The notes under the pieces: model-generated
The model's input: the letters and a program-made list of their open reading frames with translations, nothing else
What the model was told of the DNA's origin: nothing
The model's database searches: none
From: Candidatus Thorarchaeota archaeon
Lineage (GTDB): Archaea; Asgardarchaeota; Thorarchaeia; Thorarchaeales; Thorarchaeaceae
Direction: 5' to 3'
NCBI GenBank assembly: GCA_003345555.1
Contig: PRDJ01000009.1
Span: forward strand, 1 to 7,230
DNA length: 7,230 bases
Program-made: the position numbers and the translations under genes
Shown: piece by piece, positions 4,171 to 7,230 of the stretch
Position numbering within the stretch: the stretch's first letter is position 1
Layout: each line of letters starts with the position of its first letter

Positions 4171-5016
4171 TCATCTCTTTGGCTTCTTTCCGCCCGTCCG
4201 AGTGTAGTAGTACAGGTACTCTTGAGCATAGCCTGCGTACTTGCCGAAGTAATCCCTAGCCGCTCTCGATTTCTTGCTATATGACTTGCCTACATCTGTG
4301 AACAGCCCATAGTGCTCTTGGATAACGCGTTCTATCCATACATCAATTGGAAATGCCTCCAGAAACCCAAGTGAAAAGAGACACACACAATCGGAGACTT
4401 TGTCCCCGACGCCATGAAGGTCCTTGAGCACTTCATGTGCCTCTTCGTATTTCATCTTCTCCAGTTCTTCGGGCTTGATATCACCTGCAAGGATGGACGC
4501 CGTGGATCTTGAAACGAAGTCTGCGCGCCAGTCAAGGCCAAAACCCCTCAGTTCGTCAATCGTTGCTCCTGATAATTGCTCGGGCGTCGGGAAGCCATGT
4601 AGTTCATGTCCTCTGAACTGGTACGCGGGACCGTAACGGTCCCTTATGCGCTGCACCATTCTCTGGATATTCGGGATGTTGTTGCGGATTGAGCATAGAA
4701 AAGAGACTAGGCATGGGAAGAATGGGTCCCGGGCTATTCGAATGCCCGGCGCGAAGGTGATGCATGTCTTCAACAGTTCGTCTCTAGCAATCTCCTGTTT
4801 TATCTCACGAATGGGATCGCGGAGTCCAAGTAGTGTACTAATGTCAATCTCATCAGCTGAAGACTCATACTGCAGTGTGTCTCCTTTCTGCACTACATAG
4901 ACAACTTGCCCGATGTCCGCGTTAACATATCCTTCGCCTTCCTTAGTCCAGCAAAAGGTCTGTCCACACTCTAGAGTATCAGTCAAGTCGAAGTCGGTAA
5001 CTGTGAGGCTTTTCAC
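4171..5016 (-). CDS. ogg1: 8-oxoguanine DNA glycosylase / AP lyase (OGG1-type: OGG_N plus HhH-GPD)
   Basis: N-terminal DLTDTLECGQTFCW (OGG_N), GIRIARDPFFPCLVSFLCS..NNIPNI, FPTPEQL, HhH motif LHGVGDKVSDC with the catalytic Lys, AFPIDVW with the catalytic Asp, and C-terminal YAGYAQEYLY. Confidence 0.9.
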   Translation of the reverse strand: MKSLTVTDFDLTDTLECGQTFCWTKEGEGYVNADIGQVVYVVQKGDTLQYESSADEIDISTLLGLRDPIREIKQEIARDELLKTCITFAPGIRIARDPFFPCLVSFLCSIRNNIPNIQRMVQRIRDRYGPAYQFRGHELHGFPTPEQLSGATIDELRGFGLDWRADFVSRSTASILAGDIKPEELEKMKYEEAHEVLKDLHGVGDKVSDCVCLFSLGFLEAFPIDVWIERVIQEHYGLFTDVGKSYSKKSRAARDYFGKYAGYAQEYLYYYTRTGGKKPKR

Positions 5017-5106
5017 AAGCTCGTCCCTGACCTCTTGCCCAAGAAGAGCGTTGCGATATCGCCTGTTCTTGGGTAATGCTCATATCCACAGTGAGCAGAA
5101 GCCGTA

Positions 5107-5176
5107 GTTGGCGATGATGACACACCTATGAGTGATTGAGGAAGGATGAACGACCCTAGGGTATCTGAGCCGCAAC
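5107..5176 (+). ncRNA. Box C/D methylation-guide sRNA
   Basis: Box C ATGATGA at 5114-5120; 15-nt guide; D' TTGA at 5136-5139 (alternative GTGA at 5132-5135); short loop; C' AGGATGA at 5143-5149; 15-nt guide; box D CTGA at 5165-5168. Terminal stem GGC(5110-5112)/GCC(5169-5171) is in exact K-turn register with a 3-nt bulge. It lies fully within an intergenic gap and is followed by a TTTT run at 5178-5181. Confidence 0.82.
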
Positions 5177-5233
5177 ATTTTCTATCATGCACTGTCTGCC
5201 CCCAGTTCTGGATTCCAGCAGTTTCTTTGCACT

Positions 5234-7230
5234 TCAGACAACTGTCTCGTGTCGCTGGTAGACTCTGTACTTGAGAAACGCATACATGGCAAATAGCATG
5301 GCTGTACTCAAGAGCGCAGCAGGAGCGACAGCTGTTATCCAGTGCTCCCTCGGGTTCCAGTCAATACCATCGGGGATTCCATCGTAGTCGGTGTCAGGAT
5401 TTGTTGGCGAGAGGCAATACTCCACCTCATAGGCATCACCCAGCCCGTCACCATCTGTATCGCCGCTGTTTGGGTTCAAACCATTGACTATCTCAAACAT
5501 ATCGCTGAGGGCGTCCATGTCCGTATCAGGTGACAGAGGATTAAGCCCGATTGCGACTTCGAGACCGTCATCGAGGCCATCACTGTCAGTATCGACCGTC
5601 AAGGGGTTTGTTCCATATGTGTCTACTTCAACTCCATCATCAAGCCCGTCCTCGTCGGTGTCGGGGTTGATGGGATTTGTCCCAAGAGTCATCTCGGCGC
5701 CGTCCAGCAGCCCATCTCCATCGGTATCCTGGATGAATGGATTGGAACCATGCAAGACCTCCCAGTAGTCAGGTGCTGTATCGCCATCAGTATCTGGATT
5801 TGTCGGGGTTGTGCCCAAGCCAAGCTCGGCATCATCGGGCAAGCCATCCCCGTCTGTATCGACTGAATACGGGCTTGTACCTATACTAACCTCTAGAGTA
5901 TCAGATAGGCCGTCGCCATCGATGTCATTAAGGAAAGCAACAGTGGCCGTGACCAGTGCCGCATTACTGCCAAGATTGCTGACCGTGAAATTGAACTGAC
6001 CTGCGTGTTTTGATAGATACTTCACAACGATGAGGCCGCCGTCTCCCGTTCGTTGGTATAGAAGCTGATGAGAGTCCGCATCGGCTATGGTGGCAGAGAT
6101 TGTTGTGTTCTCGGTCCATCTGACTGTCGCATTAACGAAGCCATTGAACGTCAGCATGAGTTGCTCGGAGACCTGACCCAGTGGATTCAATGTGCTCGTC
6201 ACATAGAATGATGCTGCATCACTACCAAGCATTCCGACATATGCTATGACACAAGCTGCACAGGCTGTGATTTCTTTCGCCTTGTCATAGCTGTACTTGC
6301 TGTTGCTCCACACATCATTGGACGTGTCGTGATATGTGTCATACCAGTATCCTTGAGAAATGTGGATGGCTGGTCTCCCCACCTGCCAAAGCTCGTATGC
6401 CATGGATTTCTGAGCTATGTCCTGGTCGGCAGCATACTGGAGCCTGCCTGCTCCTTTCGAAGTGGATAGTCCCAGCAAGATGTCTGTTGTCCATCCCCCG
6501 TCTTGGTACCTAGAGCTGCCTAGATAGCTTCTCAATGATATCTTCGTTCCATAAAGGAAGCCAATATCATCAAAGAGTATGCGTTCGAATGACAAGGATG
6601 TTACAGTCTGGGTTTGAGTGGAGTCTAGCCAAGAAACGAAAGCTCTAGCTCCAAGGTCGGCGGTGGAACTGCTTGAGTCCCTGTTTATCAAGACGTAGTA
6701 GACATCGCAATACAGAGTGTATTTGCCCAAGACTCGTGCTATTTCGAGAACGGCCGCTACGCTTGAAGCCACTTGGTTGGCGCCCGGCGTTGACCCGGAG
6801 CTAACCACGCCCGTGACAAGAATCGCCTGTCGTGGAGCCGGGCCGACACCGTTCTTGATCGCAAGCAGAGTTCTGTGATCGGTCACTTGACGGAAAGCAA
6901 GTTGCCCTGCAGTGTTGTTCTTCAGAGTATCATTTGCCCACACCCATGCGTTCTGAAGAATCGCTGACGGAGTCTCATTCACTTCGTTCCATACTCTTCC
7001 GGGATATAGTAGCGACAAATCCCGTGTGTAATTCAATAAGCGATTCGCTGAAGTTGCACTCCATATTTCATCCCAGAGTTGAGTAACATTGAAGTCTGAA
7101 GATGACCCGGTTATGACAGGATTCTCGGGGTGCTCGGGCCGTATTTGGGCGATCGGGCCGGCTGAATGAATCGCGCATACTATGATTGCGAGTGTTAGAA
7201 GCGCGAATCCGCTTTCGGCTCGGACCCATC
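5234..7230 (-). CDS. Secreted, C-terminally membrane-anchored protein: degenerate M28 peptidase-like domain + beta-sandwich + TSP3-like repeats + TM helix (5' end outside the window)
   Basis: The frame stays open from the ORF-track TTG at 7036 to the window edge and adds a signal-like segment (FALLTLAIIVCAIHSAG). M28 scaffold: AILVTG..S...PGANxxASSVAAVLEIARVL...DVYYVLIN...YHDTSND. C-terminal hydrophobic helix WITAVAPAALLSTAMLFAMYAFL followed by KYR and a short tail. Eight N-x-S/T sequons in the ectodomain. Confidence 0.85.
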   Translation of the reverse strand, partial: WVRAESGFALLTLAIIVCAIHSAGPIAQIRPEHPENPVITGSSSDFNVTQLWDEIWSATSANRLLNYTRDLSLLYPGRVWNEVNETPSAILQNAWVWANDTLKNNTAGQLAFRQVTDHRTLLAIKNGVGPAPRQAILVTGVVSSGSTPGANQVASSVAAVLEIARVLGKYTLYCDVYYVLINRDSSSSTADLGARAFVSWLDSTQTQTVTSLSFERILFDDIGFLYGTKISLRSYLGSSRYQDGGWTTDILLGLSTSKGAGRLQYAADQDIAQKSMAYELWQVGRPAIHISQGYWYDTYHDTSNDVWSNSKYSYDKAKEITACAACVIAYVGMLGSDAASFYVTSTLNPLGQVSEQLMLTFNGFVNATVRWTENTTISATIADADSHQLLYQRTGDGGLIVVKYLSKHAGQFNFTVSNLGSNAALVTATVAFLNDIDGDGLSDTLEVSIGTSPYSVDTDGDGLPDDAELGLGTTPTNPDTDGDTAPDYWEVLHGSNPFIQDTDGDGLLDGAEMTLGTNPINPDTDEDGLDDGVEVDTYGTNPLTVDTDSDGLDDGLEVAIGLNPLSPDTDMDALSDMFEIVNGLNPNSGDTDGDGLGDAYEVEYCLSPTNPDTDYDGIPDGIDWNPREHWITAVAPAALLSTAMLFAMYAFLKYRVYQRHETVV
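5351..5926 (-). repeat. Tandem TSP3-like Ca2+-binding repeats (8 full units of 22-23 aa plus 1 partial)
   Basis: Consensus DTDxDGLxDxxExxxGxxPxxx, e.g. DIDGDGLSDTLEVSIGTSPYSV, DTDGDGLPDDAELGLGTTPTNP, DTDEDGLDDGVEVDTYGTNPLTV, ending with DTDYDGIPDGIDWNP. Confidence 0.9.

Follow-up and report, generated by a model that had tools for sequence, protein, structure and literature searches.

Genomic setting of the locus

The window analysed here is an entire contig of 7,230 nt (C9), which belongs to a 2.28 Mb archaeal MAG (51% G+C, 93% complete). The host is an Asgard archaeon, as a first-pass annotation had suspected from the DNA, and orthologous contigs carry the titles Thorarchaeota or Promethearchaeota. 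About 7% of the genome is unassembled, and the organism's own 16S rRNA is not part of the assembly.

Two genes on the minus strand leave a gap of 217 nt, and on the plus strand of this gap lies a predicted box C/D sRNA, as initially described. The sRNA is oriented divergently from the OGG gene and convergently with the TSP3/M28 gene. The features of the locus are:

4171..5016, minus strand: gene of an OGG-type 8-oxoguanine DNA glycosylase (Pfam OGG_N and HhH-GPD), divergent from the sRNA
5072..5085, plus strand: BRE/TATA-like promoter motif, GGTAATGC plus TCATAT, located some 25 nt before the predicted 5' end
5107..5177, plus strand: predicted box C/D sRNA transcript of about 66-71 nt, coinciding with the conserved island; ends predicted
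5109..5112, plus strand: 5' strand of the terminal stem, UGGC, pairing with 5169-5172
5114..5120, plus strand: box C, AUGAUGA; UGAUGA is invariant in 35 orthologues
5121..5131, plus strand: D' guide (spacer) of 11 nt, fast-evolving except for CC at g6-g7
5132..5135, plus strand: conserved D' box, GUGA; the family form is GNGA, and its G..GA columns do not vary in the alignment of orthologues
5136..5139, plus strand: UUGA, the D' box of the first-pass annotation; genus-specific (only G000-G003) and probably part of the D'-C' loop
5143..5149, plus strand: box C', AGGAUGA; AUGA is invariant, the exact register ambiguous
5150..5164, plus strand: D guide (spacer) of 15 nt, with g1 = U5164 and g5 = G5160; its 3' part GGGUAU is invariant
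5165..5168, plus strand: box D, CUGA, invariant in 35 orthologues
5169..5172, plus strand: 3' strand of the terminal stem, GCCG, pairing with 5109-5112
5178..5181, plus strand: T tract TTTT, a likely archaeal termination signal
5234..7036, minus strand: gene of a TSP3-repeat/M28-like secreted protein, flanking the sRNA and convergent with it

The OGG neighbour is kept in most orthologous loci, where the sRNA stands head-to-head with OGG and beside the primase gene PriL; in one subgroup the sRNA is found more than 1 kb away from OGG. An ORF of 59 aa on the minus strand (5013-5192) overlaps the sRNA element and has no Pfam match. The proteins that the first-pass annotation had named for confirmation are all encoded in the genome: according to profile matches, a fibrillarin gene (297.8 bits) adjoins a Nop5 gene (Nop, 228.4 bits) on contig C18, and an L7Ae gene (95.6 bits) is located on contig C26. 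Judged by its sequence, that is, by its boxes, a covarying stem, 35 orthologues and a promoter motif, the element is a genuine archaeal box C/D sRNA gene that had escaped annotation, as the first reading had proposed.

Boxes, terminal stem and spacers

Direct reading places box C, box D and the strings AGGAUGA and UUGA where they had been reported. It also agrees with the claim of a terminal stem in exact K-turn register, formed by GGC (5110-5112) and GCC (5169-5171) and extended by a U5109-G5172 wobble. The K-turn is read as the bulge G5113-A5114-U5115, followed by tandem G-A pairs, U-U, G5119-C5165 and A5120-U5164. The minimum-energy fold of the element is no better than that of shuffled sequences (z = 0.59), which is expected for a C/D sRNA.

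The internal motif departs from the initial description. UUGA, proposed there as the D' box, is confined to this genus, whereas GNGA (GUGA, 5132-5135) is kept across all 35 orthologues, and therefore the D' spacer is taken to be 11 nt long rather than 15 nt. With GUGA as the D' box the supposedly symmetric 15-nt guides become guides of about 11 and 15 nt, and the D'-to-C' interval amounts to 7 nt instead of the 3-4 nt K-loop that depended on the non-conserved UUGA. Throughout the family GNGA and (R)AUGA are conserved in the internal D'/C' motif, the C' register being ambiguous and without usable covariation. Many relatives harbour two tandem C'-like copies, AUGAAC and then AUGAUCG, such that the sequence alone cannot fix the register of the internal K-loop.

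In the family the D' spacer ranges from 8 to 13 nt. The D spacer comprises 15 nt here (with AGGAUGA as C') and 15-17 nt in relatives, and it contains a 10-nt palindrome, ACCCUAGGGU. The last six nucleotides before box D read GGGUAU in the window and GGGGUAU in most relatives, while the middle of the spacer varies and accumulates indels. With 11 and 15 nt, the spacers deviate from the spacing of about 12 nt of archaeal C/D sRNAs. In vitro work with Methanocaldococcus sRNPs reportedly found a spacer of about 12 nt to be optimal for archaeal RNPs, a length that the 15-17 nt of this family exceed. The deviation does not exclude the element from the archaeal box C/D sRNAs, since Sac-sR128 and IHOsR425, two published crenarchaeal sRNAs with an equivalent guide, share a long D spacer (about 17-18 nt). 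Accordingly, the length of the D spacer goes with this guide; it is neither a mark of Asgard archaea nor, as had been suggested, a relaxed spacing that resembles eukaryotic snoRNAs.

Chance expectation and conservation

A relaxed four-box pattern without the stem occurs at a single locus in the 2.28 Mb genome and at none in eight locally shuffled genomes, which bears out the initial view that the combination is unlikely to arise by chance. Box C and box D together with a stem of at least 4 bp are found at six loci, compared to about one in shuffles. An Rfam scan of the window yielded seven weak matches, six of which stack on the sRNA locus; these six are all C/D families and all fall below the gathering score. 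The element has its box order, overall length and terminal GGCG...GCC context in common with the Rfam families sR1, sR5, sR14 and sR46 (RF01152, RF01304, RF01145 and RF01130), yet it scores 14-18 bits against them, where the gathering scores are 38-50. By these scores it belongs to no curated Rfam family.

Conservation outlines the predicted RNA. A BLAST search with 111 nt around the element against 40 relatives produced matches in three genomes of the same genus and four of the same family, at identities from 91% down to 73%. The matches end where the predicted RNA ends and the flanks are not conserved, leaving a sharply bounded island. An exact-pattern scan of 185,579 species genomes (one genome per species) recovered 37 loci, 35 of which lie in MAGs titled Thorarchaeota, Promethearchaeota or uncultured archaeon. 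Each of these 35 archaeal loci combines a GCGGY...RCCGC stem with RUGAUGA some 45 nt upstream; the other two are bacterial, lack box C and are taken as chance background. Thus, box C, box D and the stem are preserved in 35 of 35 orthologous intergenic regions, which answers the question of conserved boxes raised at the outset.

The stem varies in a manner characteristic of base pairing. Adjoining the K-turn, 24 orthologues have a C-G pair, eight U-A and three U-G, with none unpaired, and over the 35 sequences the terminal stem is paired at 96.6%, compared to 28-50% when the partner columns are slid. The conserved block contains 1- and 2-nt indels among orthologues, which rule out a coding reading of the 59-aa ORF on the minus strand.

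A covariance model built from the 35 sequences scores 69 bits over 5107-5175 in the window. It matches 13 of 26 sampled genomes of the family as well as two of three genomes of one other family of the phylum, and finds no match in the other 25 families sampled. A pattern search in 81 genomes of the family detected the sRNA in nine of 16 genera. In five genera without the sRNA, no box C was found in the syntenic spacer upstream of OGG. Four of five sRNA-less genera whose 23S rRNA was read (out of seven such genera), g3, g4 and g12 among them, retain the target sequence described below, a point against the explanation preferred here. A metagenome scan for further diversity returned mostly GC-rich bacterial chance matches, along with seven near-identical family members. 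The distribution among genera is patchy.

Promoter and transcription

Upstream of the stem, an RRCAAW-NC-TAAAA-like motif is present in 35 of 35 orthologues at a fixed distance from box C in the anchored alignment, and the A/T content reaches 91-97% at positions -31 to -34 relative to box C. The 20-odd bases that separate this promoter-like motif from the stem are unconserved. The motif persists at loci that place the sRNA more than 1 kb from OGG, and hence it belongs to the sRNA. Its fixed position, combined with the usual archaeal distance from TATA box to transcription start, predicts a start at about 5107-5110, at the first bases of the stem. In addition to the TTTT tract of the window, a T-rich run is located within about 5-12 nt of the stem in most orthologues. 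The motif at a constant upstream distance and the downstream T tract support the sRNA as an independent transcription unit on the plus strand, in keeping with the first-pass annotation. A scan for sigma-70 promoters and intrinsic terminators is uninformative for an archaeal host.

In the wetland metatranscriptome X10, a contig of 169 nt from a congener spans the locus with three differences over 43 nt, reaching from an adapter junction within box C as far as 93 nt beyond box D. Contigs of this kind carry neither strand nor ends and may stem from DNA carry-over, and therefore this one is at most a weak hint of transcription.

The D guide and helix 74 of 23S rRNA

In the organism's own 23S rRNA, the pairing partner of the D guide is UUACCCCAGGGG (nt 2566-2577) on the 5' strand of helix 74 (H74). 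We take this segment to be E. coli about 2437-2448, counting against m2G2445, D2449, A2451, Cm2498 and Um2552 in the E. coli sequence. A5163-G5159 pair with U2567-C2571 (5 bp) and U5157-C5154 with A2573-G2576 (4 bp); between the two blocks, at g7, A5158 is mismatched to C2572. G5160 (g5) faces C2570, the equivalent of E. coli C2441, as a Watson-Crick pair in the N+5 register. Pairing in relatives comprises 6-7 bp, one or two mismatches and then a further 3-5 bp (computed for two of them), or 3-6 bp for other forms according to a hand estimate. The computed offset and register, with 2441 at N+5, are identical for five Thorarchaeota genomes and four published sRNAs.

Archaeal target predictions usually rest on at least 9 contiguous pairs, and the 5 bp, C-A mismatch and 4 bp seen here were counted against H74 as the target. 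The first reading, too, had asked for a target of 9 or more base pairs. In this respect its expectation failed, as neither guide forms at least 9 contiguous pairs apart from one chance-level match of the D' guide. It held to the extent that the D guide forms its 5 + 4 pairs, and 6 + 4 to 6 + 6 in relatives, at the site of published archaeal sRNAs.

Candidate sites were ranked over all LSU (and SSU) positions, anchored at g2, with scores of 2 for a Watson-Crick pair, 1 for G-U and -2 for a mismatch, the scheme used for Pyrobaculum (PMC6009581). The H74 site scores 16 in the window genome, more than any other rRNA site there. It comes first for G000, G003 and G001 and shares first place for G012. 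For G016 it drops to 11th, with a score of 12 compared to 18 at a 16S site, CUACCCUGUGGAG (about nt 112-124).

Ungapped searches and RNAduplex revealed no contiguous target of at least 10 bp for either guide in the own 23S rRNA, a congener's 16S rRNA, 15-33 tRNA genes with flanks and introns, or the whole genome. Genome-wide near-matches of the guides lie in coding sequence or in non-coding DNA without an Rfam family. Three further candidates for the D guide were discarded. Neither UACCC nor AUACC is present in any tRNA gene, intron or flank, which eliminates a target at the tRNA wobble position or in an intron; the 16S 790-loop, GAUUAGAUACCC, has only AUACCC in common with the complement of the guide; and AAUACCCCAC at 23S nt 139 offers 6 bp only, which are lost in G012 and G016.

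Thorarchaeota read CUUACCCCAGGGGUAACAG at the target, a sequence unchanged in 21 of the 23 genomes of the family that were read; five genomes without an assembled 23S rRNA (G066, G081, G009, G015 and G017) are excluded from this count. Two genomes of genus g5 have UUACCUC instead, and no sRNA of this family, hence no compensated guide, was found in them. In about ten genomes of the family, the H74 strand ends at the insertion site of a LAGLIDADG intron.

The target segment UUACCCC-A-GGGGUAA is a perfect palindrome around A2444. A perfect guide to such a target would itself be self-complementary, which may be the reason why the guide is near-palindromic and tolerates mismatches and indels in its middle. 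Most likely, the conserved D arm directs sugar methylation of a single 23S nucleotide beside the peptidyl-transferase centre.

The D' guide

Apart from CC at g6-g7, the D' guide changes even within the genus. Its match of 9 bp (including one G-U) with 23S 380-388 was rejected as chance level, about 0.45 such matches being expected in 3.1 kb of rRNA. Of the relatives, G003 and G012 preserve it, their guides sharing a common origin, while G001, G002 and G016 have lost it.

The D' guides of some relatives pair elsewhere in 23S rRNA. In G016, 10 of 10 positions pair (two of them as G-U) 22 nt upstream of the D site, a classic double-guide geometry. The D' guides of G157 (8 of 9 in a hand reading) and G003 pair partly near the D site, in different registers, and those of G001/G002 and G023 share one register with 23S GGUGGAGGC near nt 850. 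For the D' guide of the window, neither the pairing near the D site nor that near nt 850 was found, and no target exceeded chance.

Proposed mode of action and alternative explanations

We consider it likely, though well short of certain, that the locus is a single-copy box C/D sRNA gene with its own promoter, the D guide of which targets C2570 of 23S rRNA for methylation. An sRNA of about 66-71 nt would be transcribed from its BRE/TATA-type promoter on the plus strand. By analogy with characterised archaeal C/D sRNPs, L7Ae would bind the terminal C/D K-turn and the internal C'/D' motif, and two Nop5-fibrillarin units would assemble on the RNA. The D guide would then anneal to helix 74 of 23S rRNA, on the 5' strand leading into the peptidyl-transferase central loop of domain V, and place C2570 in methylation register. 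On the same analogy, fibrillarin would transfer a 2'-O-methyl group to the target nucleotide opposite g5, the fifth position of the guide counted upstream from box D. The gene, its boxes, the covarying stem, the promoter motif, synteny, the protein machinery and the ranking of sites were observed here, whereas the transcript ends, RNP assembly and methylation itself are inferred.

Alternatively, the sRNA may be genuine and its pairing with H74 fortuitous, the true target being the 16S site CUACCCUGUGGAG or a sequence in the unassembled 7% of the genome, or the guide may be an orphan. Such a reading draws on the short and interrupted 23S pairing, on the unassembled 16S rRNA of the organism and on the recurrence of the 16S site, which scores 15, 16 and 18 in G003, G001 and G016, respectively, and is the best site of all in G016. 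Furthermore, orphan guides are common and make up about 28% of the Pyrobaculum guides (PMC6009581). However, the 23S site ranks first in three of five species and joint first in a fourth, and its position and register are identical to those of four published sRNAs from three other archaeal lineages. No S128, N14 or I425 label appears at the 16S site in the published alignment (PMC4644070), and no site stands out in 33 tRNA genes or in non-coding DNA. Taken together, a fortuitous H74 pairing appears unlikely.

The RNP might also serve primarily as an assembly chaperone that clamps the 5' half of the palindromic H74/PTC strand, with methylation of C2441 as a secondary activity, a view that we regard as rather unlikely. 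If it were true, the H74/PTC strand could self-fold or dimerise during 50S assembly, and the guide would have been kept in Sulfolobales, Desulfurococcales, Nanoarchaeota and Thorarchaeota in order to clamp H74. Selection against self-pairing of the guide would account for the length of the D spacer, for the conservation of the A-A mismatch and for the indels in the middle of the guide. The sRNA may then also act on the exon end of intron-bearing pre-rRNA.

It is distinctly improbable that the K-turn RNP is mainly non-methylating, either since a hairpin of 3-4 bp in the D spacer plugs the arm or since the RNP functions as an H74/PTC chaperone in 50S assembly. The configuration ACC(N)-loop-(N)GGU is indeed kept through spacer forms of 12, 13 and 14 nt, with G-U wobbles, and the paralogue G009:C44 shows a swap from C-G to U-A. 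Pairing counts are compatible with the hairpin, but double changes number zero in 35 sequences. Moreover, the hairpin is thermodynamically marginal and absent from the predicted minimum-energy fold, and its closing A-U pair is broken without compensation in five of the 35 sequences. The mismatches in the middle of the guide are conserved, and a precedent comes from Pyrobaculum, where guide interactions conserved in spite of a mismatched methylation position have been read as folding aids (PMC6009581). Here, by contrast, the G-C pair at N+5 is intact in all orthologues except the G009:C44 paralogue, the target of which was not read, and methylation is therefore not disabled. Finally, the palindromic target accounts for a palindromic guide without invoking a hairpin.

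That there is no RNA gene at all, and that chance boxes, the minus-strand ORF of 59 aa or a palindromic DNA operator in the OGG promoter region simulate one, is hardly tenable: although the ORF overlaps the element, a dimeric protein might recognise the palindrome ACCCTAGGGT with its 10 perfect bp and the element lies within the divergent promoter region of OGG, the ORF lacks a Pfam match, the conserved block contains indels of 1 and 2 nt, stem covariation via a U-G intermediate and G-U pairs in the near-palindrome are signals at the RNA level, the palindrome is imperfect in most orthologues, the promoter motif persists where the element is more than 1 kb from OGG, and shuffles exclude chance.

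Implications for Asgard archaea

No account of Asgard guide RNAs of the C/D type turned up in a literature search. These organisms are the closest archaeal relatives of eukaryotes, and the sRNA described here has an ordinary archaeal architecture and its own promoter. The predicted target is common to Crenarchaeota and Nanoarchaeota, which suggests that C2441 is an old, or at least repeatedly chosen, modification site rather than a eukaryote-like innovation. Methylation guided by this sRNA predicts Cm at position 2570 of the own 23S rRNA in the nine genera that bear the gene, and none in the seven genera without it. The covariance model offers a route to annotating the sRNA in Thorarchaeota MAGs.

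Comparison with known C/D guide RNAs

The D guides of Sac-sR128, IHOsR425, NeqsR14 and PCAsR16 end in GGGGUAA, GGGGUAG or GGAGUAG (Dennis et al. 2015, PMC4644070 supplement). According to our computation, all four pair at one offset with 23S UUACC(C/U)C(G/U)..., and the published LSU alignment carries the labels N14, S128, K16 and I425 at the head of the H74 block (PMC4644070).

Sac-sR128 of Sulfolobus acidocaldarius has a D guide ending in ...CCCUGGGGUAA before CUGA, which pairs with 23S UUACCCCGGGG and places C2441 at N+5. At about 17 nt, its D spacer exceeds the usual length as well. In contrast to the 5 + 4 pairs of the window sRNA, this guide forms 11 contiguous bp. The D' guide of Sac-sR128, GAGUCAUGCC, appears complementary to GGGCAUGAC, about 9-16 nt upstream of the D site; this segment was reassembled by hand across two alignment blocks, and since an exact-string search did not find the target, its position rests on the hand reading. 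Unlike its counterpart, the D' guide of the window is not complementary to the equivalent segment. Apart from the boxes and the D guide, nothing in the sequence of Sac-sR128, which stems from another phylum, resembles the window sRNA.

The D guides of Ignicoccus hospitalis IHOsR425 (...CCGGGGUAG) and Nanoarchaeum equitans NeqsR14 (...AAGGAGUAG) address the same 23S site in the same register, and IHOsR425 likewise possesses a long D spacer (about 18 nt). They pair over 11 bp and 7 bp, respectively, both without an internal mismatch, whereas the window guide forms its 5 + 4 pairs around one. Their D boxes (CCGA and CUGC) differ, and their D' guides are unrelated to that of the window.

The D guide of Pyrobaculum calidifontis PCAsR16 (...UUCCAGGGGUAG) carries an A at g8 opposite A2444, the very A-A mismatch of the Thorarchaeota family. 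Its D spacer, on the other hand, has the canonical 12 nt. The text of the LSU alignment block contains no P16 label (PMC4644070), and the site of PCAsR16 is assigned by computed pairing.

The likeness to Sac-sR128, IHOsR425 and NeqsR14 does not go beyond boxes and D guide, and the D' guides differ, so that common descent is not established; a function shared with the C2441 guides is plausible. Guides to the C2441 site are already known from other archaea, and what is new here is their probable Thorarchaeota example.

Insertions in the rRNA genes

In one relative, G010, the 23S rRNA gene is interrupted by about 790 nt of extra sequence (L257:262-1050; contig C122, about 60021-60810) immediately 3' of GGGGUAA, at E. 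coli positions ~2449-2451, where the D-guide target has its 3' edge. A LAGLIDADG protein of 242 aa (Pfam LAGLIDADG_3, E = 6e-11) is encoded within the inserted stretch. BLAST matches to 23S rRNA are split at the same point in G004, G007, G013, G014, G158, G173, G198 (where the 5' part lies at a contig end), G200 and G201, a pattern that points to comparable insertions in some nine additional family genomes. No such insertion is present in the window genome's own 23S rRNA gene.

In another relative, G012, the 23S rRNA gene (L070, contig C9) contains an additional insertion after AAGAGUUCCU, at E. coli position about 2476, and the 16S match (L030, C2:589938-592348) extends over 2,411 nt, ~900 nt longer than in relatives; both probably represent further rRNA introns.

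In the window genome, the 23S rRNA gene stands alone on a 28-kb contig (C47:9388-12470, L007), and the assembly of this MAG contains no 16S rRNA. One possible explanation is that the rRNA genes are unlinked; alternatively, the 16S gene may simply be absent from the bin.

sRNA genes and their surroundings

Since orthologues of the 8-oxoguanine DNA glycosylase (OGG) align with the 281-aa ORF only from residue 16 onward, translation may begin not at the GTG at 5016 (window positions 5013-5016) but at a start codon ~45 nt further downstream, near 4971; the intergenic region would then be wider.

Elsewhere in the window genome, another candidate for a box C/D sRNA was observed:

L213:427-498 (-), corresponding to contig C10:8632-8690: GUGAUGA, 10-nt spacer, CUGA, internal hairpin GGGCA-UUCG-UGCCC, degenerate C', 12-nt spacer, CUGA

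Its terminal stem comprises 6-7 bp, and its Rfam C/D match is weak (SNORD46, E = 0.099).

The sRNA family occurs twice in the relative G009 (L086, C23:21073-21141; L090, C44:8413-8480). One copy retains the scaffold together with a D' spacer of the CUCC type, but its D guide is swapped for the unrelated UACGGUGAGCAG; the other harbours CUCUAGAG instead of CCCUAGGG. This exemplifies guide replacement on a conserved scaffold.
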